Assembly (NCBI GenBank): GCA_934100165.1
Contig: CAKOPN010000006.1
Span: 52,837-116,836 of the forward strand
Direction of reading: 5' to 3'
Source: an uncultured Bacilli bacterium
GTDB lineage: Bacteria > Bacillota_I > Bacilli_A > RF39 > UBA660
Length of the DNA: 64,000 nt
The first letter of the stretch is position 1, and every line of letters begins with the position of its first letter. The translations under genes were made by a program, and so were the position numbers. Below the pieces are notes generated by a model, which saw only the letters and a list, made by a program, of their open reading frames with translations, had not been told where the DNA came from and searched no databases. Positions 23,389 to 53,457 of the stretch are shown here, one piece after another.

Positions 23389-23540
23389 ATTAAATCCTCC
23401 CTTCGCCTATATCTTCGTATAGACTTGCTCCGTGTAAATAACCTGAATTAGCCTAGCAACTTTGCCTGGTGTATCAGCAACCTCACACATCTAAGCAGCC
23501 ACACGCTTAAGAGTATATCATAGAGAACCTTTAAAATCAA
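23389..23540 (-). promoter_or_regulatory. S10-operon promoter and about 120-nt GC-enriched 5' leader
   Basis: On the minus strand: TTGATT (23535-23540), a 17-nt spacer, then TATACT (23512-23517). The leader that follows is visibly GC-richer than its surroundings (…GCGTGTGGCTGCTTAGATGTGTGAGGTTGCTG…CCAGGCAAAGTTGCTAGGC…). This suggests a structured regulatory leader. No fold was computed. Confidence 0.55.
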
Positions 23541-34986: not shown

Positions 34987-35112
34987 AAAAAAACACCCAA
35001 GATAACTTTATCTTGAGTGACGAAGTTATCTCATAGTTCTAGCATTACCACCTAATTCAATAGGTTGGTGTGACTTCACAGGGCTAGTCCCTCCATCACT
35101 CTTTATAAGATG
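34987..35112 (-). promoter_or_regulatory. SAM-I (S-box) riboswitch with intrinsic terminator
   Basis: The minus strand reads CTTATAAAGAGTGATGGAGGGACTAGCCCTGTGAAGTCACACCAACC...GGTGGTAATGCTAGAAC...GAGATAAC (S-box core). It is followed by the terminator CACTCAAGATAAAGTTATCTTGGGTG + T7, directly upstream of metK. Confidence 0.88.
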
Positions 35113-36893: not shown

Positions 36894-36969
36894 TGGCAGG
36901 GGATGCAAGACTCGAACTCACGACACCCAGATTTGGAGTCTGGTGTTCTACCAACTGAACTAATCCCCT
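36894..36969 (-). tRNA. trnW: tRNA-Trp (anticodon CCA), encoded 3' CCA
   Basis: The reverse complement AGGGGATTAGTTCAGTTGGTAGAACACCAGACTCCAAATCTGGGTGTCGTGAGTTCGAGTCTTGCATCCCCTGCCA folds as a cloverleaf. It has a 7-bp acceptor stem, anticodon stem CCAGA/TCTGG, loop CTCCAAA and a TTCGAGT T-loop. Confidence 0.95.
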
Positions 36970-38069: not shown

Positions 38070-39217
38070 TTATCTTGGCAACAATAAAAGTTGATTTATT
38101 CTTAGAACATTGCTAGTTAAATTATTTAAACTTTTTATTGCATCTACAGTAGTATTGTTTTCTCTTGCTATAGAATATAATGTGTCATTTGGTTGTACAT
38201 AATAATTTATGTAAGAGTTTGTATTTGGAATATATAAGATTTCCCCTACCGTTAAAGTTGTTGATGGGAGTGAGTTATATTCCATTATTTCATTAACTGT
38301 AGTTCCATATTTTCTAGCAATTGAATAAAGCGTATCATTCCTTGCCACTACATGTTTTATATCATCTTGATTGACATTTCCTTGATTATTATTACCTATG
38401 TTACAACTAGCTGGAAGTAACAAGATATCCCCTCTTCTAATAATGGTAGTTTCTAGATTATTTAGTCTTATAATCTCATTAACATCTATGCTACAAGTAT
38501 TTGCAATTTTCCATAAAGAATCACCATCTTGAACCGTATAACTGATCGTTTCTGTGCCATTGCCTGGTGTTTCATTACTTATTGGTATCAAAAGTTGTTG
38601 GCCAATTACCAAATTTTGGGTATTTAGCTTGTTAAAATCTATGATATCTTCTGGTGTTATTCCATATTCTGTGGCAATTTTATATAATGTATCTCCTCTT
38701 TTTACTGTGTAGACTGTATAATTACTTGGATTTGGAATAATTATTTCTTCAGAATCTGGAAGGATTAGTTTTTGACCTATTTGAAGTGTGTTTGATGTTA
38801 AGTTATTTGCACTTTTTATGGCCTGAACAGTAGTGTTATACTTTTGTGCTATACTGTACAGACTATCTCCTCTTTGCACTACATAAATATTTTGACTATC
38901 ACCGTTAACAGGAACGTATGGTACACCAATGTAATTAGCAACTGCTTTTACAACTGCTTCACCATAATCTAGCAAATTGTTTTGAAGTTTATATAAGTCA
39001 TTTTTATTGTCTATAAAGCCATACTCAATTAGTAGAGACTCTGTATCGCCAGTTAATCTTTGAATAAAGTAATAATCCTTTGATGGATTTTCTGGTAATC
39101 TTCTTTGATAATATTTTCTACCCTTTTGACCAGCTTTTTCTAGTTCTTCTAGAATTGACTTTGCAAGAGTATCATCATTTCTCAATGCGTAAACAACTTC
39201 AGCGCCTTCACCACCTG
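38070..39217 (-). pseudogene. N-acetylmuramoyl-L-alanine amidase (Amidase_3) gene, 3' fragment: C-terminal half of the catalytic domain plus 5 LysM repeats
   Basis: The frame is open from 39245. It reads ...PGGEGAEVVYALRNDDTLAKSILEEL...YYFIQR...LLIEYGFIDN, followed by five LysM units (Y.V..GD.LY.IA....). It has no proper start; the track uses a TTG at 39185. It is the continuation of the fragment at 51973..52243. Confidence 0.85.
39209..39217. repeat. 9-bp direct repeat flanking the element (left copy; att core region)
   Basis: CACCACCTG is also present at 51973-51981. Confidence 0.85.
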
Positions 39218-39245: not shown

Positions 39246-40511
39246 TTAAAAATGTTTATTAAATTTATAATCATTATAATTTAACATATTTGAAAAAATT
39301 ATATCAATTACAATATCATAAAGTATTTTTGTTCTTTTATAAATCCATTCAATATCAACATCATTTGCAAAATAATCTTTTGGATTTTTTTTACCTTTTA
39401 TTCTAGGATATATTATTTCTAATGTTTCATTGTCAATAAAATATCCATTGTGTGCATAATGATTTCTTAAACTTATTATCTCCCTAGTGTAATCTTCAAC
39501 ATTAACTATTATCTCTTTTTTATAGTTATTAATAAGGCTATATGAAATAAAATCATTATAATGTCCATTACATTTGTAATAACATTCAATAAATCTATAA
39601 AACATTAAAAAATTATCTTCAATATTTCTAGAAGTATTTAAAATTATATATGGGATATTTCTTATTTCACTTTTACTATTTCTATATGGTATTAAATTAT
39701 AACATTTTGGCAAAAAATTTTTTAACTCATCAGACACGCTATTAAGTACAAGCTTACTATTATAGTCTAATCTTTTCATAGGAATATTCAATTCGTAATA
39801 AAAATCATTAATAAATACTTGAACTTTATCTATTATCAATTTATCAGGCCTTAATAATTGTAAGTATATCATAATTTCTCTTATATAATCATATACATCA
39901 TCACAACTTATTGCATCTTCCAAAATCATTTCCAAATAACCCGTTAATTTGATAGATATATCTTTATTTTTATAGTTATGAATATGATTCCAATCATCTG
40001 ATAAAATTAATTTTTTTATATTATCTTTGTTTATGTCAATTGTTTGTTTTATTGTTTCAAATTGAAGTTTTATTACCAATTCATTTTCTATTGTTTCCTC
40101 AAATAAGCTTGGATGACCTATAAGTTCATTAATAAAACTACTATATAATTTTATTTTTTTAACATCTGGACTTTTAGGCAATTCACATAATTTGTTATAA
40201 TCCTTATGACTATAATAACACCTTGAAATAAATTTGGTTTTTGAACCACCATCTGGAGTCCCCCACACGTTAGTGTGCCCTGAATAACATGCATCTTTTA
40301 ACAAGTAATTTATTTTATTTTGATAATCAATAATTAGTATATCTCGCTCATTAAATTTTGTATTTATTCCAAAAGTTCTAACTCCATTATTATTTGGTTC
40401 AATTTCATCATCTATATCATAATTTACAATTACTTCTATTGCTTTGTCATTAATTAAATATTCACATTCAAAAGATTTATCATAATCCTTATTAAAAAAA
40501 CATACTGCCAT
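39246..40511 (-). CDS. HEPN-domain protein, ApeA-like candidate
   Basis: 421 aa. The C-terminal region has NFLMFYRFIECYY ... EIISLRNHYAHNGYF (Rx4H HEPN motif). Size and layout resemble ApeA-type single-protein defence nucleases. Not verified by HMM. Confidence 0.5.
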   Translation of the reverse strand: MAVCFFNKDYDKSFECEYLINDKAIEVIVNYDIDDEIEPNNNGVRTFGINTKFNERDILIIDYQNKINYLLKDACYSGHTNVWGTPDGGSKTKFISRCYYSHKDYNKLCELPKSPDVKKIKLYSSFINELIGHPSLFEETIENELVIKLQFETIKQTIDINKDNIKKLILSDDWNHIHNYKNKDISIKLTGYLEMILEDAISCDDVYDYIREIMIYLQLLRPDKLIIDKVQVFINDFYYELNIPMKRLDYNSKLVLNSVSDELKNFLPKCYNLIPYRNSKSEIRNIPYIILNTSRNIEDNFLMFYRFIECYYKCNGHYNDFISYSLINNYKKEIIVNVEDYTREIISLRNHYAHNGYFIDNETLEIIYPRIKGKKNPKDYFANDVDIEWIYKRTKILYDIVIDIIFSNMLNYNDYKFNKHF

Positions 40512-40531
40512 TATAATACCTCCAAAACTAC

Positions 40532-40729
40532 TTAAAATTCATCATCTATATCATAAATAATACCACTTGTAGGATGTTTTAAAATTTTTAATAATTCATT
40601 TCCTATTATTCTTATTTCAAAATAAAATACTATTGCATCTTCAGAATCAAATGTATTATCTCTATCAGGATCTGTATCATGTTTTGCATAATTTAATAAT
40701 CTTCTTAAATTGTTAAGTCTATCGTACAA
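40532..40729 (-). CDS. Small HEPN-motif ORF (possibly the 3' part of a frameshifted gene)
   Basis: LNNLRRLLNYAKHDT (Rx6H) followed by DSEDAIVFYFEIRIIGNELLKIL, a typical post-motif HEPN helix. There is no ATG; the track start is a TTG. The frame opens inside the end of the upstream ORF. Confidence 0.45.
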   Translation of the reverse strand: MYDRLNNLRRLLNYAKHDTDPDRDNTFDSEDAIVFYFEIRIIGNELLKILKHPTSGIIYDIDDEF

Positions 40730-40740
40730 ATCCCCATTAA

Positions 40741-41154
40741 TTATTCCTTCGTTATATAATGTTCAATATTTCTTCCAAACTCTCTTTTATTATAAATAAA
40801 TTTAATAAGTTTATTTTTAGATAAAGTTAATTTAACAAGTGTTTCTACATGTAATGCAGCATCTATTATTATATGTCTTGCTCTATTGCAACAATACATA
40901 TCACTTCTTGCATATTGAAGACTTCTGAATACATTTCTATAGTCACCTAATCTATTAAATGGATTTACTGTAGGATTTAATGGTGCAGCGTAACCACCAA
41001 ATCCACCTATTTTTTGATCAAATTCCCATATTTCTCTTTGCTTTTCCTTATTCATGTATTCCTTATCAATTATTTTTGCAAATCTCTTAAAAAGTGTTAT
41101 TTCTTCTTTAGTATAGTAGTTATTTACAATAATTCTAGTTTCTATTCTCATCAA
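40741..41154 (-). CDS. Hypothetical protein (possibly the 5' part of the same HEPN gene)
   Basis: 137-aa ORF, 6 nt downstream of the Fic gene. It ends ...RNIEHYITKE*, and the -1 frame continues as ...LYNEGIINGDLYDRLNNLRR.... Confidence 0.5.
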   Translation of the reverse strand: MMRIETRIIVNNYYTKEEITLFKRFAKIIDKEYMNKEKQREIWEFDQKIGGFGGYAAPLNPTVNPFNRLGDYRNVFRSLQYARSDMYCCNRARHIIIDAALHVETLVKLTLSKNKLIKFIYNKREFGRNIEHYITKE

Positions 41155-41160
41155 TGATTC

Positions 41161-42087
41161 CTATATTAATTCTAAATATTTCTTTAGCATTTCGACTTCT
41201 AACTTAGTAACCAATTTAATAAAATCAGTATAATTACCAGTTGTATGTGCCTTATCTAGTGCTTCATAATATTTTAATCTTGATTCTTTTTTAATAATTA
41301 CAGGATTATATCCATTGTTCATTAAAACCAAATTCATAAGTAATCTGGATGTTCTTCCATTACCATCTACAAACGGATGTATTTTTACTAATTCTCCATG
41401 CAATAACGCTGCTTGAATTATCGGATGATATTCACTCCAAGTATTATAAGTTAATATTAATTTTTCCATCAATTCAGGAATTTTTAAATAGTCTGGGGGA
41501 ATATGTGTTGCACCTTTAATAGTTACATTTTCTTTTCTATATCTCCCAGCATTTTCATTATCTATATCTTTTAAAATTAACTGATGGATATTTTTAATAT
41601 TCCATTCGCTAATTGGTTCATTATCTTTAACTAAATCATCTAAAAATAAAATTGCTTTTTCATGGTTAATTGCTTCTAAATGTTCTTTAATAGATTTTCC
41701 ACCAACAGTTATTCCTTCTAAAACAACTTGTGTTTCTCTTAATGTTAAAGTATTACCTTCTATTCCATTGCTATTATAAGTCCACTCTAAATTAATAGAT
41801 TCTCTTAATGATTTTAAAGTTTCTTTTGATATTGGTCTTTTACTATCTAAATCTTTTTTTAAGCCATCTACTTCATCAAAATAATTATCTTCTAAATCAA
41901 TAATAAATTTATTATCATCCGGTTTAATTATTCTTTTATCAACAGGTTTATCAGCATCAATAGGAATATTCCAACTATTTCCTACTTTAATGGCACCCTC
42001 AATTCTACCATCTTGCAGTAATTGTCTTATTCTCCTCTCGCTAATGTTCCATTTTTCAACAGCTTCTTTCGTAGTCATAAATTCCAT
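41161..42087 (-). CDS. Fic-family protein (AMPylase-type) with N-terminal HTH
   Basis: Canonical Fic motif HPFVDGNGRTSRLLMN. The class-II inhibitory-helix-like motif SNGIEGN fits (S/T)xxxE(G/N). N-terminal MerR/excisionase-like HTH (TTKEAVEKWNISERRIRQLLQDGRIEGAIKVGNSWNI). ATG at 42087 lies 6 nt after GAGGTG and downstream of the promoter. Confidence 0.9.
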   Translation of the reverse strand: MEFMTTKEAVEKWNISERRIRQLLQDGRIEGAIKVGNSWNIPIDADKPVDKRIIKPDDNKFIIDLEDNYFDEVDGLKKDLDSKRPISKETLKSLRESINLEWTYNSNGIEGNTLTLRETQVVLEGITVGGKSIKEHLEAINHEKAILFLDDLVKDNEPISEWNIKNIHQLILKDIDNENAGRYRKENVTIKGATHIPPDYLKIPELMEKLILTYNTWSEYHPIIQAALLHGELVKIHPFVDGNGRTSRLLMNLVLMNNGYNPVIIKKESRLKYYEALDKAHTTGNYTDFIKLVTKLEVEMLKKYLELI

Positions 42088-42106
42088 ACTATTCACCTCG
42101 TTTGTA

Positions 42107-42135
42107 ATTATACCGTATTCGGTATAATTAGTCAA
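42107..42135 (-). promoter_or_regulatory. Consensus promoter of the Fic-HEPN operon with an embedded 7-bp inverted repeat (candidate operator)
   Basis: On the minus strand: TTGACT (42130-42135), a 17-nt spacer, then TATAAT (42107-42112). The spacer/-10 region contains TATACCG-N4-CGGTATA (42109-42126). Confidence 0.75.
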
Positions 42136-43283: not shown

Positions 43284-43450
43284 TTTTTTCAACTTCTCCT
43301 CAAATTGGGGCAAAGTTGTTTAGCTTTACACTTTGGATCCTTTTGGACCGACGTTATTTAGTTTTCAACTTTGCGACAACTGGCCGAGAAGTTAGAATTT
43401 TGATGTTACGAGTTTTTATGTACTATTCTGTGCAAATGCACAGAATTTTT
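43284..43450 (+). ncRNA. Candidate structured small RNA / structured 3' UTR
   Basis: TATAAT at 43272-43277. Nested long-range stems pair AACTTCTC (43291-98) with GAGAAGTT (43386-93), and CAAAGTTG (43311-18) with CAACTTTG (43366-73). A terminator hairpin TTCTGTGCA-AA-TGCACAGAA (43426-45) plus T5 follows. This is a locally GC-richer, ORF-free stretch of about 200 bp. Confidence 0.35.
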
Positions 43451-45023
43451 AAATCATGAATCTATAGAAAATTTCAATATTTTTATCCTTATCAATTTCA
43501 ATTCTATCAATTAATGTTTGTAAAAGTTCTCTAGTAGGATTTTTTATATCTATTAATTCTCTTATTCTTTCTTCATATTCTTCTAATTCTTTAGTTTTAA
43601 CACTTTCTTTTTTAGTACCTTTATATTTTTCTAAATCCAATTGAGCTTTATTTAATAGACTTTCCGTTTCTTGAGATAATCTTTTATAAGTAACATCTGA
43701 TATATTACCTTTAAATTTATCTTCATATAACATATCAATTTTCGAGACATATTCTTTTATCTTCTCCTCTAAATATTTTATCTTTTCTTTATTATCTTCT
43801 TTCCTATTATTTTTAGTTGCTATTTCTTTAGATAATGATTTAGAATCAATTCGCTTAATATAATTTTTACAAGTCGTTCTTACTACTTCAAGTAGAGCTT
43901 CCTCTAATTTATCATATGGCATAAAATGCGGTTCACATAGTCTTCTTCTTGGATCTCTTGCATATTTATTACAATTAATAGTCCAATAATTATGATTTTT
44001 TCGGTACGTAATAGTTAATGTATTACCACATTCTTTACAAAATAGTAAATTTTCAAATAATCTTTTTTCTCTATTACTAACACTTACATTAGTCCTTTTG
44101 ACATTACCTTGTATTCTTTCAAAAGTTAGTTTATCAACTAATGGTTCATGTGTTTCAGAAACTATGTCCCAATTACTTTTTGGAAGTGCTTTTTTCTTTT
44201 TAGATTTATAATTTATTTTAGTCTGTGTACTTTGAACCATATCACCTGTATACATTCTATTTTTTAATATCTTTTTAACTGATGATATAGTCCATTGTTC
44301 ATTATATCTCATTTTAGAATTAAGATTTTTTCGTTTTAAACTACTAGGTGTTTTAATTTTATTATCATTTAAATATGAAGCTATATCAGATAATCCTACA
44401 CCACTGGCTGCCATTTCAAATATTTTTTTAACTACCGATGCATATTCAGGATCAGGTATTAAATGACCTTTTTCATTTGGATCTTTCATATATCCATAGC
44501 TTGGATTACTTCCAATAAACTTTCCTTTCTTTCTTTTATCATTTAAAACACTCCTAATTTTAATAGAATTTTGCCTACTATAATAATCGTTACAAGCAAT
44601 TATAAATGTTGATGAATCATTACTTGCTTGATTAATTGCACTATCATAGTTTTCTTGTAATGATATAAATCTTATATTATTTTCTGGGAAAAATCTTTCA
44701 ATATAATATCCTGTCATAACATGATCTCTACCTAATCTTGATAAATCTTTTACTATAACTAAATTTACCTTTTTACTTTTAATATCTTCAATCATTTTAG
44801 TAAATCCAGGTCTTTCAAAATTAGTACCAGAATATCCATCATCAACATATTCTCCAACAAATATAAAACCTTTTTCTTTTACAAAGTTCATTAATAAATT
44901 TCTTTGATTAGTAATACTTTCACTTTCTGATTCATAAGATTTTCCTTCATCTGCTTCAGATAATCTTATATATATGACCGCTCTATAAATATTATTTGGC
45001 ACTTGTATCAATCCGTTATACAT
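43449..45023 (-). CDS. Large serine recombinase (resolvase N-terminal domain + recombinase domain + zinc ribbon + coiled coil)
   Basis: AVIYIRLSEADEG...SITNQR (catalytic Ser context), VKDLSRLGRD, a central recombinase domain, CKECGNTL...C...C, and a C-terminal coiled coil. Confidence 0.92.
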   Translation of the reverse strand: MYNGLIQVPNNIYRAVIYIRLSEADEGKSYESESESITNQRNLLMNFVKEKGFIFVGEYVDDGYSGTNFERPGFTKMIEDIKSKKVNLVIVKDLSRLGRDHVMTGYYIERFFPENNIRFISLQENYDSAINQASNDSSTFIIACNDYYSRQNSIKIRSVLNDKRKKGKFIGSNPSYGYMKDPNEKGHLIPDPEYASVVKKIFEMAASGVGLSDIASYLNDNKIKTPSSLKRKNLNSKMRYNEQWTISSVKKILKNRMYTGDMVQSTQTKINYKSKKKKALPKSNWDIVSETHEPLVDKLTFERIQGNVKRTNVSVSNREKRLFENLLFCKECGNTLTITYRKNHNYWTINCNKYARDPRRRLCEPHFMPYDKLEEALLEVVRTTCKNYIKRIDSKSLSKEIATKNNRKEDNKEKIKYLEEKIKEYVSKIDMLYEDKFKGNISDVTYKRLSQETESLLNKAQLDLEKYKGTKKESVKTKELEEYEERIRELIDIKNPTRELLQTLIDRIEIDKDKNIEIFYRFMI

Positions 45024-45100
45024 TTATTACTCCTTTCTTTTTTGTATAACAATCAAAGCCATTTAAAGTATAATGCTTTATTTTCATAAGTACCAATGTG

Positions 45101-45199
45101 CTAATTTTGAATTAGTACACTTTTTATATATTTATTTAACAAATCCACCAAATTAAGAGCATTATCATCCTTTTTAAAAGTTTCCGTAATTTTAAACAT
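45101..45199 (-). CDS. Small ORF (32 aa) immediately upstream of the recombinase
   Basis: ATG at 45199 is preceded by GAGGTGG. It encodes MFKITETFKKDDNALNLVDLLNKYIKSVLIQN*. It is below the track cutoff and coding status is unproven. Confidence 0.3.
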   Translation of the reverse strand: MFKITETFKKDDNALNLVDLLNKYIKSVLIQN

Positions 45200-45244
45200 A
45201 AGCCACCTCATAAAATTTTATGAGTGTCTTTTTCATTTTATTTC

Positions 45245-45748
45245 TTATTCCTCCTCGTACATATCACTTAATAATTTTTTTAACTCTTTTTGTTTTTCAA
45301 TAGTTGCCTCATTTTTAGGTATTAACTTACCATGCCAGTATTCATTACCATCTTCATCTTTATAATAAATACTATCTTCTTTTTTATTTAATTTATTATA
45401 TTGTTTAAAGTTTTGTTTATAGCCTGTATTAAAATTATCTTTAACACTTTTTATTTTTAAATTTAAGAACTCTGATAATTTAATTATACGCTTAGAATTA
45501 TTTGTACCTTTATTATCATATTCAGTCTTAATATAACCAAAGGTGGCCAAATTACTTATACTTTTTGATATAGTTACTTGTGTTACATTATAAATATCAC
45601 AAAAATATCTATTAGTAGCCCAACAATAACCATTTTTCTTACAAAGACTTATTATATGAATTAATAATAGTCTTTCTAAAAATGTTAATCTATTATCTCT
45701 TAATACGGATTTTAAAATAAATACATTTATGAATTCTTCTTTATCCAT
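45245..45748 (-). CDS. Winged-helix/HTH DNA-binding protein (phage/plasmid replication- or regulator-like)
   Basis: LTFLERLLLIHIISLCKKNGYCWATNRYFCDIYNVTQVTISKSISNLATFGYIK. The ATG at 45748 is chosen because the longer track ORF runs through the upstream terminator hairpin. The start is uncertain. Confidence 0.6.
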   Translation of the reverse strand: MDKEEFINVFILKSVLRDNRLTFLERLLLIHIISLCKKNGYCWATNRYFCDIYNVTQVTISKSISNLATFGYIKTEYDNKGTNNSKRIIKLSEFLNLKIKSVKDNFNTGYKQNFKQYNKLNKKEDSIYYKDEDGNEYWHGKLIPKNEATIEKQKELKKLLSDMYEEE

Positions 45749-45860
45749 AATAATCAATATATAAGATATATCTTGAGATAATAAAAGTGCACTTTTAAAG
45801 ATTATTTTCCTAGGTGTTTTCATCTTATAACAAATTAAAATAAAAAGAAATTGTACAAAA

Positions 45861-45889
45861 CATGCAAAAGGAGTACATTTCTGTACTCC
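45861..45889 (-). terminator. Rho-independent terminator ending the ATPase-TOPRIM / Mrr-STAND operon
   Basis: GGAGTACA-GAAA-TGTACTCC 8-bp hairpin (45870-45889), followed by TTTTGCATGTTTTG on the minus strand. It lies 8 nt after the stop at 45898. Confidence 0.8.
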
Positions 45890-45897
45890 CAATTTAA

Positions 45898-48207
45898 TCA
45901 TTGTATATCATAATCTTGATTAAATATATCGTCAACATCAATTGTATTTGAATTTATCCTTTGAGAATAATCATAATCAATAGAATCCCCATACATTTCT
46001 TTCTTGTAATCATTTAAATCATCGTCTAATAACATTTCAATACATATATTATCAATTATATAATCATAATCTAACTCTACATTATTAAATTTATACCCTA
46101 AATTTCTAATATAATCAATGCATTCATTAGCTTTTTGTATTAATTCTTCTTCCACTTGCTGCTTAACTTCAAAAACGTAATTTATGTTTCCTTCTAATTC
46201 TTCATTATTATTTATAAATTTTATATCAGGTGATGTACTTCTAATTGTTTCATTAACAAAATCTTCTCCTAAGGAAATTAATTTATATTCAAGAGAAGAT
46301 GATAAAACACTAATTAAGTTTTTTTCTACTAATAAATTAGGCAATTCAATATCCGAATAATATTCTAATAATTCTTCAATATATTCATAATCTGAATCAA
46401 CTATTTTTTTTGAAAATTTTTCCACATCATTTATAATCGTCTCTAAAGAATAAAAAGCTCGGATACTTTTATTTAAAGCAAATTTAACTAAATAATTTCT
46501 TTTTAAATCATAATCAAAAAATGAAGAGACATAGTTTTTAATTTTTTTATCACAATACTTATGTTTAATAATAAATTCTATTTTCTTCTTTATTTCTAAA
46601 TTATCTTCACTCATAAATGAATTATAGTGATTATATGCTGATATTTTTTCAAAATTATCAATATTATTTTCTAAAAAATAAGGACATAATCCCGAAATTT
46701 TATCCAATTGTTCTACATATAAAGCAGTATCAAATATTTTTTTCAATTGAGCATTATTATCAAGCAAATAATTTTGTATATAATCATTGATGGATGGGTT
46801 TAATACACTTATATATTTTTTCTTGCCTAAAATAGCGATTCCTATCAGTGATTTACTCAATCTATTTATTGAATCATTAAAACTATAACGAGAAACGTCA
46901 TATCCATTTCTTATTAGAAAATTTACTGTTGATTTTTTTAAAACATCTATTGGAATATAATTATTTCCCAAAGTATATAATTGATACATTAATATCGCAT
47001 CACAAGGTTCAATCCTATCAAACTCACTTTTCCAAACATCCTTTGGGTTATTTAATGCATTTATAATGAAATCATAAAAATTTTCTGATTCTAACTTTTT
47101 CTCACGTATAACACACATTTCAATAATGCGTGTATTAAATGATTTATGCTCAATAATACTATTATAATTTTTATTTTTAATTATTGACTCATATGATTTT
47201 TTAGTAACACCGTTATGATACATTAAATTATATAAAATTCTTGCCCGATCTAATTTAGTTATTTCATTAACATCTATCAAACATTCTTTAATACCAATTT
47301 CGTCCATTAGCTTTTCAAATTCTTGTTTTTCATTCTTAGCTTTATTTAAAATTGTAATTCTACTATTTAGTATAATCTTTTTATTTTTATAAATTCTTGT
47401 TAATTTTAATAACGATTTTAATTCATTAATCAATTTATCACTAATTGATAAGGACGTTTGTCCTAAAAAATCATCTAAAAAAATTATTTCAGGATTATCA
47501 TTTTGTTGCACAGATTCTATCAACTTTGAAAAATCATTATTAGATACTGTTGTCAATCTATATTCTTTGTTACTTATCAAAAGATACCTTATCAACATTT
47601 TAGATGTCAATGTTTTTCCAATGCCAGGATCACCAATAAATAAAATAACTCCACTAGAATTTATAATATCGACTGCATCATAATATGCTTTAGTTTCTAC
47701 AAAATATTTTGTTTCATTTTCAAAATCATCTATCATGACTTTACTAATAGCATCAGAATACCTATTTAAATACAAATCTAATACTACAGCTGATGAAAGC
47801 CATAATTTATGATTCTTTTTTAAAACATCAATATTTGCATCATCTATTAAAAAATCATCGATATCATTTTTTCCTATAACATAAGAATAATTTTTCATGT
47901 AGTCTCTAAAAATATCATATATATTCTTAGTAACCGTTTCACTAATTTCAGCAGTAGTTAGTAAATAATATGAATCAAAAGACTGTTTTTTTATTTTTTC
48001 TAATTCTTTTTTGCAAGCATCAACTAATTTTGAAGAATCTTTATATCTTTTACATTGACAAATAACTTTACCATCAAAACTTATTAAATCAATGCCATCA
48101 TCTTTACCAGGACCAAATCTTTTAAATTTTAAATTTAATCTTTTTTCCATAAAATCCAGGCAAAACTTTTCAAACTCTATTGGATCTAAATTTAAAATAT
48201 TAAACAT
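45898..48207 (-). CDS. Mrr-like PD-(D/E)xK nuclease fused to a STAND-type P-loop NTPase with a helical C-terminal region of about 500 aa
   Basis: N-terminus: FEKFCLDFM...GPGKDDGIDLISFDGKVICQCKRY (Mrr_cat pattern). Walker A ILFIGDPGIGKTLTS (aa 188-202), Walker B EIIFLDDFLG (aa 240-249). The C-terminal remainder is long and alpha-helical looking. Confidence 0.75.
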   Translation of the reverse strand: MFNILNLDPIEFEKFCLDFMEKRLNLKFKRFGPGKDDGIDLISFDGKVICQCKRYKDSSKLVDACKKELEKIKKQSFDSYYLLTTAEISETVTKNIYDIFRDYMKNYSYVIGKNDIDDFLIDDANIDVLKKNHKLWLSSAVVLDLYLNRYSDAISKVMIDDFENETKYFVETKAYYDAVDIINSSGVILFIGDPGIGKTLTSKMLIRYLLISNKEYRLTTVSNNDFSKLIESVQQNDNPEIIFLDDFLGQTSLSISDKLINELKSLLKLTRIYKNKKIILNSRITILNKAKNEKQEFEKLMDEIGIKECLIDVNEITKLDRARILYNLMYHNGVTKKSYESIIKNKNYNSIIEHKSFNTRIIEMCVIREKKLESENFYDFIINALNNPKDVWKSEFDRIEPCDAILMYQLYTLGNNYIPIDVLKKSTVNFLIRNGYDVSRYSFNDSINRLSKSLIGIAILGKKKYISVLNPSINDYIQNYLLDNNAQLKKIFDTALYVEQLDKISGLCPYFLENNIDNFEKISAYNHYNSFMSEDNLEIKKKIEFIIKHKYCDKKIKNYVSSFFDYDLKRNYLVKFALNKSIRAFYSLETIINDVEKFSKKIVDSDYEYIEELLEYYSDIELPNLLVEKNLISVLSSSLEYKLISLGEDFVNETIRSTSPDIKFINNNEELEGNINYVFEVKQQVEEELIQKANECIDYIRNLGYKFNNVELDYDYIIDNICIEMLLDDDLNDYKKEMYGDSIDYDYSQRINSNTIDVDDIFNQDYDIQ

Positions 48208-48208
48208 T

Positions 48209-49390
48209 TTATTTTACCTCCTCAACTAAATATTTATATTTCTCATAATCTTTAAAATTGTCTAAATATTCAATAAAATCAGGAGCATTTTCTTTTTTCC
48301 CAGTATAACCAATTTCACCCTCTAATATTGTATTTGATTCCAAATATATATTACATTTTTTTATTTCAATATTAATTGCTTTATTATTTTCATCCTTTTC
48401 ATTATCCTTATCAAATAATGGAATAACTTCTATATCAAGATTTTGAAATATTTTTATAAAAGGTATAAAGTGTGGCTTTCCATAACATTGAAAAATACTA
48501 TATTGTGTATATTGTTTATTATAATTAACTAACAATTTTTTAATAAACAATTCATCATTTATACCTTCTACCATATAAATTTTTTTTGAAAACAACGAAT
48601 TCAAGAATTCCTTTTTATGAAGTTCTATAATATTTCTTTTTAACGAATCTACAGAGAAATAAGATTTTGATTTATTATTCAAATTTTCAACATGAATATC
48701 ACTAGGGAGTAATATAGCACTTTTAAAATCAATTTTTTTTGGTTCTCCAAAATTTGGATCATTAAATATAAATAAATTTTCAAAATCAATATCTAATAAA
48801 TTTAATAAATCTGGAGAATGTGTAGCTACACAAATATCTTTCGTTTTACTTAAATCATTTATAAGACCTGCAGTAACATGCAACAACGATGGATGAGTAT
48901 GATTTTCTGGTTCATCTAAATAAATAAACTGCTTATGACTCTTTTGTATTAATTTTAATAAAAATTGTAATTTCTGACCACTTCCCATGTTATTTTTTAA
49001 ATCATCTGAATTTATTTTTACTATTTTTTTATACTCTTTTGTCGGAGTTGTAGAAATAACGTTTTTTTCTCTCTTTTGATTATTAAGGCTTAAAACCTCT
49101 TCCATTATTTCATTATAAATTTGTTGGTTCTCCTCAATACTTTTATCCAAAGCACTTTCATAATTTTTTCTAGCATTAGAAATCTCTTCATTCTCTAACA
49201 ACTCACTAATCAAATATTCCATTACAAAAGAGCTATTAACCGTATCTTTCATTTCATCAACAAATACTATTTCGGAATTTAATAATAGAATATCTTTTCT
49301 TTCTTTATCCTGTTTTTTTAATTCTTCTATTTCTTTATTTATCGCAAATGTTTTACCATAACCATTTGGACCAATATAAATTTTTAACAT
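48209..49390 (-). CDS. ABC/AAA_21-type ATPase fused to a TOPRIM domain (compact OLD-family-like / DUF4435-like protein)
   Basis: Walker A GPNGYGKT (aa 7-14), signature-like MGSGQKLQF, Walker B IYLDEPENHTHP, VATHSP, then TOPRIM-like IYMVEGINDE (aa 271-280) and LFDKDNE (aa 325-331). Its stop lies 1 nt before the downstream ATG. Confidence 0.7.
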   Translation of the reverse strand: MLKIYIGPNGYGKTFAINKEIEELKKQDKERKDILLLNSEIVFVDEMKDTVNSSFVMEYLISELLENEEISNARKNYESALDKSIEENQQIYNEIMEEVLSLNNQKREKNVISTTPTKEYKKIVKINSDDLKNNMGSGQKLQFLLKLIQKSHKQFIYLDEPENHTHPSLLHVTAGLINDLSKTKDICVATHSPDLLNLLDIDFENLFIFNDPNFGEPKKIDFKSAILLPSDIHVENLNNKSKSYFSVDSLKRNIIELHKKEFLNSLFSKKIYMVEGINDELFIKKLLVNYNKQYTQYSIFQCYGKPHFIPFIKIFQNLDIEVIPLFDKDNEKDENNKAINIEIKKCNIYLESNTILEGEIGYTGKKENAPDFIEYLDNFKDYEKYKYLVEEVK

Positions 49391-49472
49391 ACTACATCAC
49401 TCCTACTACTAAAAAAACGCAATACAAAACTTAAAGATAATTTAAGCCTGTACTAGCGCCTTTTTATTCTTT

Positions 49473-49715
49473 TTATAATTTTATATTCCAAATACCTTGT
49501 TTTCCAGATATTTCATTTTTACAATTAACTTTTTCTAAATTTTCTAATTTCCAAGCATATCCAGTTCTATCAAACTTATGACCATAGACCAGCTCATTTT
49601 CGCTTATTATTTTCTTATTTACATCTGGATCAAGCTTGATACAATCCGTAATGCTTACTTTAGCCAATATTCGAGGTTTTGAATAATTTAAATTAAGATG
49701 TTCAAATTTCTTCAT
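49473..49715 (-). pseudogene. ASCH-like domain remnant (C-terminal portion)
   Basis: The frame is open upstream of the annotated M and reads [29 protein letters not shown]...GKQGIWNIKL. The expected ASCH N-terminal strand is missing. It abuts the dcm fragment in a different frame. Confidence 0.4.
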
Positions 49716-49747
49716 AGCATCTAAGTCAACACCCTTACCAGCATGAA

Positions 49748-49891
49748 TTAAAATTTCTCCTCTTGCCTCATATGTTTGTATAGCAACTTATCTATTTCAG
49801 AAGAAAAAAAACATGTACCACCTAATTTTTGATACGGTCTTCTAATACCACCTATTCCCGCAAATAAATCTATAAATTTAAAATCTGACAT
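49748..49891 (-). pseudogene. 5' fragment of a DNA (cytosine-5) methyltransferase gene
   Basis: ATG at 49891 follows GAGGTGA. It encodes [35 protein letters not shown]..., which is motif I FxGxGG plus motif II (SEID). It then goes out of frame and stops after 47 codons. Motif IV (PCQ) and later motifs are absent. Confidence 0.7.
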
Positions 49892-50084
49892 TTTTATCAC
49901 CTCACTATTGTACAATTTCTAGTACGCTCTCTATAAATAATTATAACACATATTTCGACATTTTTATTAAGGGTTTGGGAATTTCCCACAAAAGAATTTC
50001 TTACGGGAGTACAAATTCAGTGCTGGCTAGACAATAAACATACTCCTACATCAATTTTTTAATGTGTTTTATTTTTGAATTTAA

Positions 50085-51191
50085 TTACAAAGTATAGTTA
50101 CTTATTAATTGGAGTATAATCTGATTTCTTTGCATAACTAAACTTTCCGGTTCGTAAAAGCACATAAACATTTCATTTTTATCTACCGATTTTTTATATA
50201 ATTTCAAAAATAAAATTAAGTTTTTTCTTTGAAAATCAGTCATGTTTTCTAACAAACAAATTATATTTTGATAAGAATTTTGATCCAAAAAATCAAAAAA
50301 TTTATTCATAAAACCAATCATAACATCAGATAATTGTAATCGAATATTTTTCTTAGAATCTTCGAAATTATAATTAGTTATATCGCTATTTTTTAATTTA
50401 TCTTGAATTTCCGAAATCTCATCAAAGCAATGAAACGATTTATAAAATTTAACACACATATCTAAGTTCAACCCTGAATAACCATCAATTATTACTTTTT
50501 CAGAATTATTTTCTAAAAAAAATAATTGCTCCTTTTTTGAAAATTTTTTAAATAATTGTCTACAAGTTTCAAGACAAAATAACATATTAGTATCTGTTTC
50601 ATTAATCCAATTATACATTTTTTTGCAAAAAAACTCAATGCAATCTCCAGTAACATTGGGATAATTTGATTCTTCTAAAATATGTATAAACCTATTTATA
50701 TCTGTTTTTACATAAAAATATAATTCATCTTTCATTATTGGTGCTAAAAAAGAATATGTTTCTTTATATTTATCTAACAATAAAGAATCAACTATTTCTA
50801 TTATTACATCATAAAGATTATCAAAAGTAGAACAATGTAAATATATATCATTATCATACATAAATTCTAATATTTTATTTAAGTTTTTTCCTCTCAGGCA
50901 ATTTATAAATGTATCTGTTTTTCCTGTATTTATTTGTTTAAATTTTAATTCACCTTGTACATTTAATTTTTTTAATAAGTCGTCCCAATCAACCATATCA
51001 TCTTTATTTTTATCTAAAGTTAATCCACCTAATCTATATTTTTGTAAAAAATTATCAATATTTAAAATTTTGTTATCTTTAAACTGAAATTTAATAAAAT
51101 TATTTGTTTCATCATAATAAAAATTATTAACCACATTAGTATCATAACCTTGCTCAGTATAGTATTCTTCTAGCAATGCACTAAGACTCAT
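50085..51191 (-). CDS. Hypothetical protein, DUF3800-like candidate
   Basis: ATG at 51191 lies 9 nt after GAGGAG. N-terminal FYYDETNNF and C-terminal FEDSKKNIRLQLSDVMIGF resemble the DUF3800 D-E...DS..LQ.aD signature. Not verified by HMM. Confidence 0.4.
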   Translation of the reverse strand: MSLSALLEEYYTEQGYDTNVVNNFYYDETNNFIKFQFKDNKILNIDNFLQKYRLGGLTLDKNKDDMVDWDDLLKKLNVQGELKFKQINTGKTDTFINCLRGKNLNKILEFMYDNDIYLHCSTFDNLYDVIIEIVDSLLLDKYKETYSFLAPIMKDELYFYVKTDINRFIHILEESNYPNVTGDCIEFFCKKMYNWINETDTNMLFCLETCRQLFKKFSKKEQLFFLENNSEKVIIDGYSGLNLDMCVKFYKSFHCFDEISEIQDKLKNSDITNYNFEDSKKNIRLQLSDVMIGFMNKFFDFLDQNSYQNIICLLENMTDFQRKNLILFLKLYKKSVDKNEMFMCFYEPESLVMQRNQIILQLISNYTL

Positions 51192-51257
51192 AACAATCAA
51201 CTCCTCACATATATTATAACATTAAAAACACTACCATTTCTGATAGCGTTAATTTTT

Positions 51258-51557
51258 TTAATAATATCTTTTTAATCTTAATGGATTACTATTCTTCACT
51301 ACTAAATTATATTTTATTTTTAATATTTCTTTTATCTTAGGTATAAGTCTACTAATATCACACCTACAATTAAATATATCTACAGCAGAGTTAATATGAT
51401 TTATTAAATTACATTCTGATAAACAATGTCTACTATATACATTTGCTAAATAGAATGCAACTACATCTGGTATAACATAATTATTTAAATAATTATTAAC
51501 ATTGTTATAGAAAGGTAAATATATTTCTTCAAATTCTTTATTAGTTATATCACACAT
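51258..51557 (-). CDS. Hypothetical small protein
   Basis: 99-aa ORF overlapping the end of the tnpV-like gene by 8 nt. No recognisable motif. Confidence 0.5.
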   Translation of the reverse strand: MCDITNKEFEEIYLPFYNNVNNYLNNYVIPDVVAFYLANVYSRHCLSECNLINHINSAVDIFNCRCDISRLIPKIKEILKIKYNLVVKNSNPLRLKRYY

Positions 51558-51912
51558 AGATATACTCCTTTAAAATTATTTCTTCGACTTTATTTTTTAT
51601 ATTATTCATTTTACCTATCCATAACATTTGACTACTACTTTTTAATTCTTCAGTTATATTTTCTTTTTCAACAAGTTCTTTAATTAAACTTTGTTCTTTA
51701 TCAATAAGTGTAATATCAATATCATTCAAATACTCATTCAACTTATCTTTCATAAGTAGCTCAGTATATAATACTCTTTTATTCTTCTTTAAATACTCCA
51801 ATTTAAGTAATCCGTACTTTCCTAAATTAAATCTTTCTTTATTTTCTAATTTCAAATCTGGTAATAAATAATCACCAATTCTAGTGTAACTAATGCTCAT
51901 AATTTTCCTCAT
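51550..51912 (-). CDS. tnpV: TnpV-like protein (Tn4451-family accessory protein)
   Basis: SISYTRIGDYLLPDLKL...LGKYGLLKLEYLKKNKRVLYTELLMKDKLNEYLNDID...SSSQMLWIGKMNNIKNKVEEIILKEYIY matches my recollection of the TnpV family pattern. It is the first gene inside the right end of the element. The start may instead be ATG at 51900. Confidence 0.65.
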   Translation of the reverse strand: MRKIMSISYTRIGDYLLPDLKLENKERFNLGKYGLLKLEYLKKNKRVLYTELLMKDKLNEYLNDIDITLIDKEQSLIKELVEKENITEELKSSSQMLWIGKMNNIKNKVEEIILKEYIYV

Positions 51913-51955
51913 TTCTTTCTATTTTATTTGGTTTTAATTGTTATACATATTTCGT

Positions 51956-51972
51956 TACACAATGACCATCAC
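51956..51972. repeat. 17-bp terminal inverted repeat, right end
   Basis: TACACAATGACCATCAC is the reverse complement (16/17) of 39218-39234. Confidence 0.85.
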
Positions 51973-51981
51973 CACCACCTG
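51973..51981. repeat. 9-bp direct repeat flanking the element (right copy)
   Basis: CACCACCTG is identical to 39209-39217. Confidence 0.85.
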
Positions 51982-52243
51982 CATTTATGTGATTAGATAA
52001 AACAATTACATCAGAACTATTCCCAAAAGCATTTAAAATTCTATTTACTCTTTCATTTCTATCTAAAGTTTCATCTGTATCTCTTGTAATATAAACTGGT
52101 ACTCCTAGTTGTTTTAATCTATCATAAATGTAGTTAGCAACTTCTAAATTAAAATTTTTTTCGTAAATATTACCATTAACAGCACCTGAATCAACGCCTC
52201 CATGGCCAGCATCAACCACTACTTTTTTGATATTGTCATTCAT
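51973..52243 (-). pseudogene. N-acetylmuramoyl-L-alanine amidase (Amidase_3) gene, 5' fragment
   Basis: MNDNIKKVVVDAGHGGVDSGAV...VIVLSNHINAGG is the N-terminal half of Amidase_3. The track ORF continues 10 codons into the element (…GDGHCVTKYV*) to 51941. Confidence 0.85.
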
Positions 52244-52347
52244 AGTTTCACCTCACAATAAAATATGCAAATAATATGATTGTGTGAAAGTGCAACTATG
52301 AATTTTTAATATCTTTTGTTGCTGAAAGCTTTTTGATTCTCTGATAA

Positions 52348-53457
52348 TTACTTTTTTATCAAAATAACAGGAACATAAACCTCATCATCCGAGTATCCAG
52401 CATGCTGTGAATACAATACATCATCGCCTTCTGTTATTATACATTTTTGTGAATCGTTTGCTATAGCTATAAAGTCTCCGAGCGCATCATAAAATAGCTC
52501 GTTTACTTTTCCATCTCCAAATAACTTGCTATCAATAATATCTTGTCTATCATATAAATCAAACCATTTTCCAAATAGTTCATTAAACTTTATAGGAAAC
52601 TCATTTAAGCATTCTTTTTTTACTTTAAAAGAAACTGCTCTTTGCTCTAGTGATGTTGTTCTTTCCAACATATTTATTATTTCAGAATATTCTTCTAAAA
52701 AAATATGTTCAACTTTCATATGCCCATGGTCCGCTACAATTATTACTAAAGTATTCCTTAATTTTTTACACAAAGCTTCTACTTTATTATTTCTTTCCAA
52801 TATCAAATTTCTGGATTCTTCACTATTTGGTCCAAAACCGTGCATAGTGTGATCTGGTTCAGTGTCATAAGCATATATGAATTTTTTCTCTTTCTTTTTA
52901 GTTTCTGTCAAAATAATGTTTAACATATCATCTAAATCTTTATATACAACTGCATTACCTGTAGGAAAAGGAAATAACTCCATTGCAGAAAACTTTCCAC
53001 ATTCATTTATCTCATCTGCAATTGTCTTTGAAACAAGCTTATATTTAGCATCTAAAAAGTCATTACAAACTTCTTTCTTACCTTTTTCACTGTTCATAAA
53101 CAAAGTAATAGTTTTATCTATTGGCTTTATATACATATTCCAGCCAAGCCAACCATGCTCAATAGGATTTAATCCTGTTCTAATAGATGTTGTTGCCGCG
53201 GTAGTAGTTGCGGGAAATACTGTAGTTATGTCTTTGTAATCATTTTTAATAAAAAATGCATCTTCAGGTAAACTTCTTTTCAAAATATTAGAGCCCATTC
53301 CATCAAATAACATTAAAATAACATTATTTGGGTTATCTTTTTCTAATATCTTATCTATATAAGTAAGAGTATTATGTTCATAATCAAGACCGAAATATTT
53401 TCTTATAGAACATGCTAAATTTGTTAAGCATTCATTGTAATTATTTTTGACTTTCAC
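52348..53457 (-). CDS. Alkaline-phosphatase-superfamily protein (type I phosphodiesterase/nucleotide pyrophosphatase-like)
   Basis: LMLFDGMGSN, FPATTTAATTSIRTG and VIIVADHGH motifs. The likely start is GTG at 53457, 8 nt after AAGGAG. Confidence 0.8.
   Translation of the reverse strand: MKVKNNYNECLTNLACSIRKYFGLDYEHNTLTYIDKILEKDNPNNVILMLFDGMGSNILKRSLPEDAFFIKNDYKDITTVFPATTTAATTSIRTGLNPIEHGWLGWNMYIKPIDKTITLFMNSEKGKKEVCNDFLDAKYKLVSKTIADEINECGKFSAMELFPFPTGNAVVYKDLDDMLNIILTETKKKEKKFIYAYDTEPDHTMHGFGPNSEESRNLILERNNKVEALCKKLRNTLVIIVADHGHMKVEHIFLEEYSEIINMLERTTSLEQRAVSFKVKKECLNEFPIKFNELFGKWFDLYDRQDIIDSKLFGDGKVNELFYDALGDFIAIANDSQKCIITEGDDVLYSQHAGYSDDEVYVPVILIKK

Follow-up and report, generated by a model that had tools for sequence, protein, structure and literature searches.

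Proteins of the OLD family, which combine an N-terminal ABC ATPase with a C-terminal TOPRIM domain (Glu + DxD), and Avs proteins, in which an effector, a STAND NTPase and a C-terminal helical sensor are joined in one chain, are the closest described relatives of the two genes considered here. Single-protein defence by OLD or ABC-TOPRIM proteins is reported in one source (PMC12392090). The compact ATPase-TOPRIM fusion HEC-04 acts as a lone defence gene that needs its Walker A and TOPRIM acidic residues (Payne et al., bioRxiv 10.1101/2024.01.29.577857). The PDC systems are a set of 145 untested 'guilt-by-embedding' predictions (bioRxiv 10.1101/2024.01.29.577857). Avs5 carries the Pfam nSTAND3 domain (bioRxiv 10.1101/2025.07.08.663546), and its sensor was reported to cluster with SAMD9 (PMC13581612). 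Relatives of both groups were found side by side in a window of 64,000 nucleotides (nt) from an uncultured Bacilli bacterium (GenBank assembly GCA_934100165.1, contig CAKOPN010000006.1, positions 52,837 to 116,836 of the forward strand), to which all positions below refer. Two minus-strand open reading frames (ORFs), gene 1 at 48209..49390 and gene 2 at 45898..48207, were assigned to a compact OLD-family protein and to an Mrr-nSTAND3 protein (hereafter OLD and STAND), respectively.

Based on all analyses, it was concluded that the pair probably consists of two self-sufficient anti-phage modules fused in one cargo cassette, rather than of a new two-part system. Shown for the locus were its anatomy, domain assignments, distribution and cassette boundaries; the biochemical activities, the defence function and the effect of the leader on expression were inferred. 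It was proposed that the pair arose by a lineage-specific fusion of two cassettes, in which the STAND gene would have lost its own leader, because the STAND gene alone, the OLD gene alone, or the OLD gene with another partner sit behind the same hairpin leader in sister elements. The slot that holds the pair was bounded at the 5' side by a promoter and hairpin leader and at the 3' side by an HTH_36-recombinase backbone. This shared leader and slot architecture are the more original observations, beyond the compact OLD and the PDC-S73-type protein themselves.

In the gene 1 protein, OLD-like_TOPRIM (PF20469) was detected by Pfam at amino acids (aa) 266-329 with an E-value of 1.1e-10 (42.3 bits against a cut-off of 23.2), and AAA_21 and AAA_15 matched slightly under their gathering scores. 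Across an 18-member family alignment, the ATPase head showed invariant Walker A (G7, N9, G10, G12, K13), signature (G136, S137, G138, Q139), Walker B (D159, E160, P161, E162; DEPE) and H-loop (T190, H191, S192) residues. E275, G276, D279 and D327 of the TOPRIM domain were likewise invariant, and D329 was nearly so. An AlphaFold2 model (pLDDT 84) placed a short two-helix insert at aa 54-101 within the ATPase head. The top PDB fold match of this model was the Class 1 OLD of Thermus scotoductus (6P74, E 6e-10; query-normalised TM-score 0.46), and GajA and the retron-Eco8 OLD came next. By sequence the match to Class 1 OLD was marginal (E 6e-6 over 45 residues), and PADLOC returned weak partial matches to GajA, PDC-M01A, HEC-01A and AriA. 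Matches to PPR proteins in the PDB sequence search were discarded as repeat-summing artefacts. Gene 1 was hence assigned, from profiles and a predicted fold, to a compact (~390 aa) OLD lineage with a putative ABC ATPase fused to a putative TOPRIM nuclease. A protein search with the compact OLD returned 173 clusters at E <= 0.001. It was present in ~25 species-representative genomes, mainly gut or other animal-associated Bacilli or Mollicutes-like metagenome-assembled genomes (MAGs) and Coriobacteriia, and no relative was found in the phage genomes searched.

The OLD family in general is defined by features that gene 1 possesses at both ends, the N-terminal ABC ATPase and the C-terminal TOPRIM with its Glu and DxD. 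Among the OLD classes, Class 1 (P2 Old and the proteins of T. scotoductus and Vibrio cholerae) gave the best structural match, and many members of the compact family stand alone, for example in locus L011, as Class 1 genes do. However, gene 1 encodes 393 aa, when the solved chains have 512-528 aa and the full-size architecture ~520-590 aa, and a ~50-aa helical insert is found where the dimerisation domain sits. Gene 1 is also coupled to a STAND gene at this locus and so is not a single-gene system here, and its surroundings are a defence island, which differs from the account of Class 1 genes in a review (PMC10568477). HEC-04, which is found in Hma/restriction-modification (R-M) loci, is likewise a compact one-protein ATPase-TOPRIM fusion with R-M surroundings, and the compact OLD genes neighbour type I R-M, methyltransferase with GmrSD, or Dcm genes. 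No HEC-04 model was among the PADLOC matches listed for gene 1, which therefore appears to belong to a different sequence family of analogous architecture.

The ABC ATPase and TOPRIM chemistry is also shared with Gabija and PARIS, the GajA and AriA models of which matched gene 1 weakly and partially (1e-7 to 1e-8). However, gene 1 is paired here with a full effector-sensor protein, which is found by itself as well. No UvrD/PcrA/Rep-like helicase (GajB) was found among the ORFs of 40-56 kb or in the ten neighbouring ORFs scanned. As regards PARIS, the AriA match was partial (1.1e-7), no AriB/DUF4435 match was obtained, the TOPRIM of gene 1 was that of PF20469, and no separate DUF4435 AriB gene was present among the ORFs of 40-56 kb. 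A Class 3 OLD/retron arrangement was not indicated either, as no reverse transcriptase domain occurred in the neighbouring ORFs scanned and no Rfam non-coding RNA was found in 45000-52500 at E <= 1.

Further, gene 2 was matched end to end by the PADLOC single-gene candidate PDC-S73 (E 1.6e-101, aa 6-764 against positions 8-751 of the 752 in the profile). Pfam detected Mrr_cat (1.9e-7, aa 5-91) and nSTAND3 (PF20720, 1e-33, aa 169-331), and the PADLOC N-terminal models of pAgo-associated restriction endonucleases also matched, at aa 3-154. Residues D36, D40, Q51, K53, G192, P194, G195, G197, K198, D245 and D246 were invariant across the family alignment. The C-terminal region lost identity fastest among homologues, and many matches covered ~65% of the query. 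The best fold matches of the AlphaFold2 model (pLDDT 83) were SAMD9, ORC/Cdc6, EfAvs5 (SIR2-STAND, 833 residues), CED-4, a plant TIR-NLR, Apaf-1 and Avs4. Those of SAMD9, EfAvs5 and Avs4 agree with the reported clustering of the Avs5 sensor with SAMD9 (PMC13581612). Because of these fold matches and the shared nSTAND3 domain, gene 2 was interpreted as an Avs-like NLR that belongs to the nSTAND3 clade and has Mrr in place of the SIR2 of Avs5.

The order of effector, STAND NTPase and C-terminal helical sensor in one chain is that of Avs5 and of the Mrr-bearing Avs2 and Avs4, and gene 2 resembles Avs5 in its NTPase and in size. The difference lies in the effector, which is Mrr and not the SIR2 NADase; no SIR2 match was found in the Pfam scan of gene 2. 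No AVAST model (types 1-5) of PADLOC matched gene 2 at E <= 1, and a PDB sequence search gave only P-loop noise, with no significant match to any solved Avs protein. Gene 2 is thus predicted, by profile and model, to be an Avs/NLR-like single-protein system that is already catalogued as candidate PDC-S73, of which no mention was found in the literature searched.

An initial annotation of this DNA, made by eye, had given both ORFs exactly as found here, with the stop of gene 1 located 1 nt before the ATG of gene 2. Its motif calls in the two proteins were borne out by Pfam profiles and invariant alignment columns. The same applied to its reading of gene 1 as an OLD-like ATPase-TOPRIM protein (PF20469, the ABC motifs, the OLD fold matches) and of gene 2 as Mrr, STAND and a helical tail (Mrr_cat, nSTAND3, the helical AlphaFold2 C-terminus). 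Of the profile hits it had anticipated, an OLD-like TOPRIM, Mrr_cat and nSTAND3 were obtained and AAA_15/AAA_21 fell just under threshold, but no DUF4435 match was seen. The tail, put at ~500 aa, was overestimated: ~440 aa follow the nSTAND3 match, and part of these belong to the STAND helical/winged-helix portion. Nor did the description of gene 2 as a 'mini' STAND protein, with Avs proteins being much larger, agree with an Avs5 that shares nSTAND3 and is of about the same size (the EfAvs5 chain has 833 residues).

Across the junction of the genes the sequence is gag gag gta aaa TAA a ATG, and the Shine-Dalgarno sequence GAGGAGG of gene 2 lies within the end of gene 1, which predicts translational coupling of gene 2. 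The unit is closed by a hairpin with a folding energy of -13.3 kcal/mol (z = -3.1) that was kept in other paired loci and was absent after the STAND genes of L079 and L080. The hairpin and its conservation agree with the terminator proposed earlier, though not with its being 'strong', as only four T's follow the stem and a consensus terminator scan did not call it. The reading of the pair as a predicted co-transcribed two-gene unit in a recombinase-borne defence island was upheld.

The conservation of the pairing was evaluated with STAND relatives from 326 species-representative genomes, of which the best 80 loci were analysed for their neighbourhoods. About 45 of the 80 STAND genes had no same-strand ORF within 60 nt, and the compact OLD accompanied STAND in only 4. 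When the search started from OLD, the pair was found in L014, L015, L016 and L021, with OLD proteins 66-79% identical to that of the window. Adjacency was kept only within a narrow clade in which OLD is 66-93% and STAND 66-90% identical to the window genes. Solo distant STAND genes were found in a Clostridium prophage, Brachyspira, Bacillus toyonensis and a MAG; a search of phage genomes yielded three distant relatives of STAND, with one homologue on a Clostridium phage. The gene for 393 aa that follows STAND in Brachyspira had no Pfam match and was not recovered by OLD-family hidden Markov model or phmmer searches, which covered a set of loci without those that hold it (L028-L030). Thus the expected conserved adjacency held within the clade (at least 66% identity) and not elsewhere, where the families were mostly separate. 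The pairing could not be regarded as obligate, as had been suggested, since both families mostly occur apart and the leader lies directly ahead of a solo STAND gene in L079 and L080. That the combination is unrecognised remained true in so far as no named multi-gene PADLOC system covers the pair, but gene 2 alone is catalogued as PDC-S73.

The OLD lineage was also seen with other neighbours. In L017-L020, an OLD homologue of 66% identity is followed by a gene for a 204-aa predicted membrane protein, the start of which overlaps the OLD stop by 17 nt. This protein is another tightly coupled partner for this OLD lineage. It had no Pfam or PADLOC match, was found at L017:7154-7768 and L020:6415-7029 and also in L036-L039, and a KAP-family NTPase gene comes next in L017-L019. 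In L007, where OLD is 43% identical, the downstream gene encodes an unrelated Ppl-like PHP-ATPase protein of 785 aa, which is not a divergent STAND. In L011 and L001 OLD (50-57% identity) is uncoupled, and in L001 no gene was called in the 1.7 kb after it. In L079 and L080 the place of OLD upstream of STAND is taken by a Schlafen-type helicase gene. The STAND genes of these two loci are 70-71% identical to the L016 group, and therefore unpaired STAND genes nest inside the paired clade.

The OLD gene is preceded by a leader hairpin of -22 kcal/mol (z = -3.5) that looks like an intrinsic terminator or attenuator. The leader was nearly invariant in all close OLD loci despite unrelated upstream genes, and in more divergent OLD loci the hairpin and T-run were kept while the stem sequences differed. 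The two hairpin arms were scanned against the metagenome collection, which yielded at least 120 stretches, of which 80 loci were kept (L168-L247). They share a module of ~100 nt (window 49389-49488, minus strand) that consists of an extended -10 promoter, a hairpin with U-tract and a Shine-Dalgarno sequence, and the module was noted in L014-L021 and L079 too. The extended -10 box (TGnTATAAT-like) was present in 51 of the 80 loci and preceded the hairpin by a median of 17 nt. A T-run after the hairpin was found in 79, and the Shine-Dalgarno sequence followed ~5 nt on, then the start codon. Similarity between loci stopped directly after the Shine-Dalgarno sequence.

The ORFs behind the leader fell into 33 unrelated clusters in 65 loci, and OLD was found in only 3 loci. 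PADLOC and Pfam were run on 29 cluster representatives. Named systems comprised Ppl, Tmn/YobI, AbiD and AbiLi; PADLOC candidates were PDC-S06, PDC-S19, PDC-S46, PDC-S48, PDC-M49A, PDC-M36A and PDC-M01A; DEDDh exonuclease, Schlafen-AlbA_2, DUF6119 and DUF3644 domains were also recorded. Judged by these matches, the families behind the leader are mostly defence or defence-candidate families. A role as an OLD-specific regulatory element, considered since an exact 14-mer stands upstream of all close OLD genes, was ruled out by the 33 unrelated families. The leader-bearing mobile elements came mostly from gut and other animal-associated metagenomes.

It was also observed that all 67 unique leader variants are more stable in the sense than in the antisense orientation (mean minimum free energy -18.5 against -7.1 kcal/mol), with ~5 G·U pairs among 19, from which the hairpin is predicted to work on the sense strand. 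Covariation was apparent in the apical stem (CTTATAA/TTATAAG, CTTGAA/TTCAAG, CTTAAAT/ATTTAAG), the length of which varies, and the basal stem occurs in two registers (…TTGCGC, …TTGGCG). No Rfam family matched the leader, and nothing was found in 45000-52500 even at E <= 1. The leader could act as an RNA attenuator that restricts how strongly toxic cargo is expressed, could serve as a landmark when cassettes are exchanged, or could do both.

A trace of the proposed fusion may be preserved at the junction. In L079 (4935-4985), the leader hairpin with one mismatch is followed by AGGAGGTAA and then by the solo STAND gene, and the last OLD residues of the window are encoded by this same AGGAGGTAA. 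This fits an OLD gene that was joined to the 5' untranslated region of STAND with the loss of the second hairpin. In L017-L020 the leader stands ahead of the OLD gene with its other partner.

The boundaries of the slot were determined by comparing the DNA of the window with the sibling elements of L175, L210 and L240. The leader block (49380-49488) is homologous in the siblings, and the right backbone (from 45855-45912 to 45201) showed 93-97% DNA identity to all three; the HTH_36 and recombinase proteins are 90-92% identical. Homology ended at the OLD start codon (49380-49400) and restarted at the STAND stop (45855-45912), and therefore the non-homologous stretch begins exactly at the OLD start codon and ends exactly at the STAND stop codon. 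In the siblings the slot holds a single gene, for a Ppl-like PHP-ATPase in L175 (a member of the Ppl-like cluster represented by L183), a 532-aa protein in L210 and a 661-aa protein in L240. Left backbone homology (52260/52275 to ~51224) was shared with L210 and L240 only. An 88-nt block at ~49963-50056 was shared among the siblings with L210 and L240 (not L175), was found in L014 as well and is 86-93% conserved. On the minus strand, this block has the left backbone on one side and the variable region on the other, with a TGTTATAAT box just downstream of it, and it may mark the slot as a second landmark.

The following model is proposed for the pair. By analogy with Class 1 OLD and HEC-04, OLD would act alone, nicking or degrading DNA through the two-metal site of its TOPRIM domain in an ATP-regulated manner, with both the ATPase and the TOPRIM residues needed. 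By analogy with Avs, the C-terminal helical sensor of STAND would bind a phage protein, the nSTAND3 NTPase would then drive ATP-dependent oligomerisation, and the oligomer would activate the Mrr nuclease, leading to DNA degradation and aborted infection. The two proteins would most likely act in parallel, as a layered defence from one mRNA under one leader, and the promoter-proximal terminator of the leader probably keeps expression low or conditional.

Several observations weigh against two self-sufficient modules. Stand-alone defence by either gene is argued by analogy, with PDC-S73 a candidate only, and a 393-aa OLD, much smaller than the characterised OLDs, could require a partner. The two genes of the pair are in every case tightly joined (1 nt apart or overlapping by 8 nt), OLD and STAND co-diverge (identities of 93/90, 79/72 and 66/66%), and the pair travels as a unit through at least 4 upstream contexts, namely a Dcm R-M module, type I R-M, and an EcoRI-like methyltransferase with GmrSD, with or without DUF4268; a recombinase may be present or absent downstream. 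In addition, three full-size and different OLD-family genes are tightly linked, in either order, to distant Mrr-nSTAND3 genes in L103, L110 and L122. The L103 gene, for which the PADLOC 'Old' model was the best match, overlaps STAND by 29 nt.

These data raise the alternative of a cooperative two-gene system, a new context class in which an OLD nuclease works with an NLR-like STAND protein, and this was considered unlikely. OLD could, for example, make or sense DNA damage that licenses STAND, guard STAND from phage inhibitors, or form one complex with it. The conserved tight junction, the co-divergence, the joint inheritance through different flanks, cassette boundaries that take in both genes and the independent links in L103, L110 and L122 speak for such cooperation, as do the known OLD classes 2-4 with their working partners (PMC10568477). 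However, each family is mostly without the other, solo STAND genes occur inside the paired clade (L079/L080), and an equally divergent OLD pairs with the membrane protein. Neither the lengths nor the catalytic residues differ between paired and unpaired members, and this absence of domain loss in paired members suggests no domain-level dependency. In L167 (51-1231), OLD is split into ORFs of 272 and 111 aa while the downstream STAND (768 aa) is intact; this could reflect OLD decay or, on a single contig of 3.6 kb, an assembly error.

The linkage in L103, L110 and L122 was assessed against a control, a Pfam scan of 167 non-adjacent flank ORFs of at least 330 aa from the same STAND flanks. About 8 of the 167 were AAA_21/AAA_15 proteins, a comparable per-gene frequency, and UvrD, SIR2 and YhcG nucleases were also present; other Mrr-nSTAND3 loci had AAA_21, AAA_13 or AAA_23+DUF3732 ATPases as neighbours. 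The flanks are therefore ordinary defence islands in which OLD adjacency is not clearly above background. A phmmer enrichment test was biased because its queries were the adjacent genes themselves, and a specific enrichment of OLD beside Mrr-nSTAND3 was left unproven. The adjacency in these loci, which is suggestive only, may be a defence-island coincidence or a recurrent functional association. Other recurrent upstream neighbours of Mrr-nSTAND3 genes were also recorded. A fusion of YunG and uracil-DNA-glycosylase (~300 aa) lies upstream of STAND in L081, L082 and L031, and L084 has a 123-aa relative of it there. A ~379-aa protein without a Pfam match lies upstream of Mrr-nSTAND3 in 8 mainly Lachnospiraceae loci (L091, L108, L113, L115, L116, L118, L120, L123).

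A broader proposal joins the cooperative OLD-STAND pair to a separate and better supported component, in which the leader would be an undescribed RNA attenuator or cassette landmark controlling or exchanging more than 30 defence families; as a whole it was judged rather improbable. Little likelihood was given to the genes mainly serving the mobile element, by addiction, stabilisation or competition with other elements, with nucleases that would kill cells losing it or gaining a rival. The pair does lie in a serine-recombinase element beside a Fic-domain gene (SoFic/PDC-S04) and other cargo, the archetypal OLD, P2 Old, is itself borne on a mobile element (PMC10568477), and a STAND homologue is found on a Clostridium phage. 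Against this, the alternative cargo of the slot belongs mostly to PADLOC defence or candidate families, and solo homologues also occur in chromosomal, non-mobile contexts, such as the Brachyspira gene between PEPCK and ankyrin-repeat genes. Such a service also overlaps with the defence hypothesis and does not exclude defence.

Least probable of all is an operon that is silent or decaying in this window, in which transcripts from upstream would hit the terminator. The decayed Dcm/ASCH remnant reaches to ~6 nt from the leader hairpin, ~2 kb were deleted upstream relative to L014, and no extended -10 box is found within 45 nt upstream of the window leader, whereas such a box occurs at 51 of the 80 leader loci, L229 and its 94%-identical pair among them. 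Against this, weaker -10-like boxes (TATAAA, TTATAA) are present upstream, and both ORFs are intact with all catalytic residues. In addition, ASCH and leader are arranged in the same way in L014, where the genes are intact and 78% identical in DNA, which implies long-term purifying selection.

Table. Features of the two-gene cargo and of the mobile element around it (positions in the window unless a locus is named)
Feature	Position	Strand	Basis or remark
Gene 1, compact OLD-family nuclease (predicted), 393 aa	48209..49390	-	ORF call; ABC ATPase aa 1-~205, linker, TOPRIM aa ~266-393
ABC-type ATPase head of gene 1	48776..49390	-	Walker A 7-14, signature 135-140, Walker B 156-162, H-loop 190-193
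TOPRIM nuclease domain of gene 1	48212..48595	-	E275, D279, D327xD329; PF20469
Shine-Dalgarno AGGAG of gene 1	49400..49404	-	read off sequence
Gene 2, Mrr-nSTAND3-helical sensor protein (predicted), 769 aa; PADLOC PDC-S73	45898..48207	-	ORF call, PADLOC and Pfam
Mrr-type PD-(D/E)xK nuclease domain of gene 2	47935..48195	-	D40 ... Q51-x-K53; Mrr_cat
nSTAND3 P-loop NTPase of gene 2	47215..47703	-	Walker A 191-198, Walker B D245 D246; PF20720
Helical C-terminal region of gene 2	45901..47214	-	STAND helical/winged-helix modules and presumed sensor; mostly helical, pLDDT ~80-95
Shine-Dalgarno GAGGAGG of gene 2	48217..48223	-	within the final codons of gene 1
Terminator hairpin GGGAGTACA-gaaa-TGTACTCC, then TTTT	45866..45890	-	3' boundary of cargo
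Leader hairpin with A-tract/U-tract, core GCGCTAGTACAGGC at 49446-49459	49410..49466	-	5 nt upstream of gene 1 Shine-Dalgarno; 5' boundary of cargo slot
Amidase_3 N-terminal fragment	51941-52243	-	
TnpV	51550-51912	-	
99-aa ORF	51258-51557	-	
PDC-S51 protein, 371 aa	50085-51200	-	PADLOC single-gene candidate, 2.3e-76
Dcm/ASCH remnant	49473-50050	-	decayed Dcm-type C5-methyltransferase joined to C-terminal half of ASCH-like gene
HTH_36 protein	45245-45901	-	Pfam; element backbone right of slot (backbone 43449..45901)
Large serine recombinase	43449-45023	-	Pfam
HTH-Fic protein	41161-42135	-	PADLOC SoFic/PDC-S04, ~1e-35; beyond recombinase, inside element
421-aa ORF	39246-40511	-	no Pfam or PADLOC match
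Amidase_3 C-terminal part and LysM repeats	38070-39185	-	
Full-size OLD genes (AAA_15 and OLD-TOPRIM) beside STAND	L103:5938-7434; L110:3092-4966; L122:7334-9292		

The cargo slot is part of a large-serine-recombinase element of ~13 kb (~39.2-51.9 kb) that splits an Amidase_3/LysM gene, with the N-terminal fragment at one end of the element and the C-terminal part at the other. L155, L170, L180, L210 and L240 share this insertion site and the TnpV/HTH_36/recombinase backbone and carry different cargo. The GC content of the element (40-52 kb) is 22-25%, against ~27-34% in the rest of the window, and the split amidase gene recalls the intervening elements that interrupt sporulation genes. Compared with L014, the window has gained the PDC-S51 gene, and the ~2 kb that it lost correspond to the C-terminal Dcm part, a 373-aa gene and the N-terminal ASCH part (L014 3643-5644). 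A terminator-like hairpin with a T-run (51227-51250) lies directly upstream of the PDC-S51 start. On the other side of the recombinase, the HTH-Fic gene is followed by 137-aa, 65-aa and 421-aa ORFs (39246-41154), the 137-aa ORF having no PADLOC match, and the stretch 39246-42135 is a possible third region of cargo. In its chromosomal part, the window contains, on the minus strand, a SAM riboswitch (35028-35111), a tRNA gene (36897-36969) and a Clostridia-type S10 ribosomal-protein leader (23403-23501).

The locus would add two candidates to prokaryotic defence, a minimal (~390 aa) OLD lineage and an Mrr-effector version of the nSTAND3 (Avs5-type) clade, the carriers of both being mostly gut or other animal-associated metagenomes and MAGs. 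It also calls for caution, as tight operonic coupling in a defence island need not imply functional dependence: the same two genes were seen apart, each behind the same leader. The leader itself may serve as a sequence handle for mining defence genes, with any gene downstream of it being a candidate, and it offers a testable model in which toxic defence genes are held at low or conditional expression. The value of the locus as a scaffold lies in a serine-recombinase element with leader-defined cargo slots and in a hairpin leader common to dozens of defence families.

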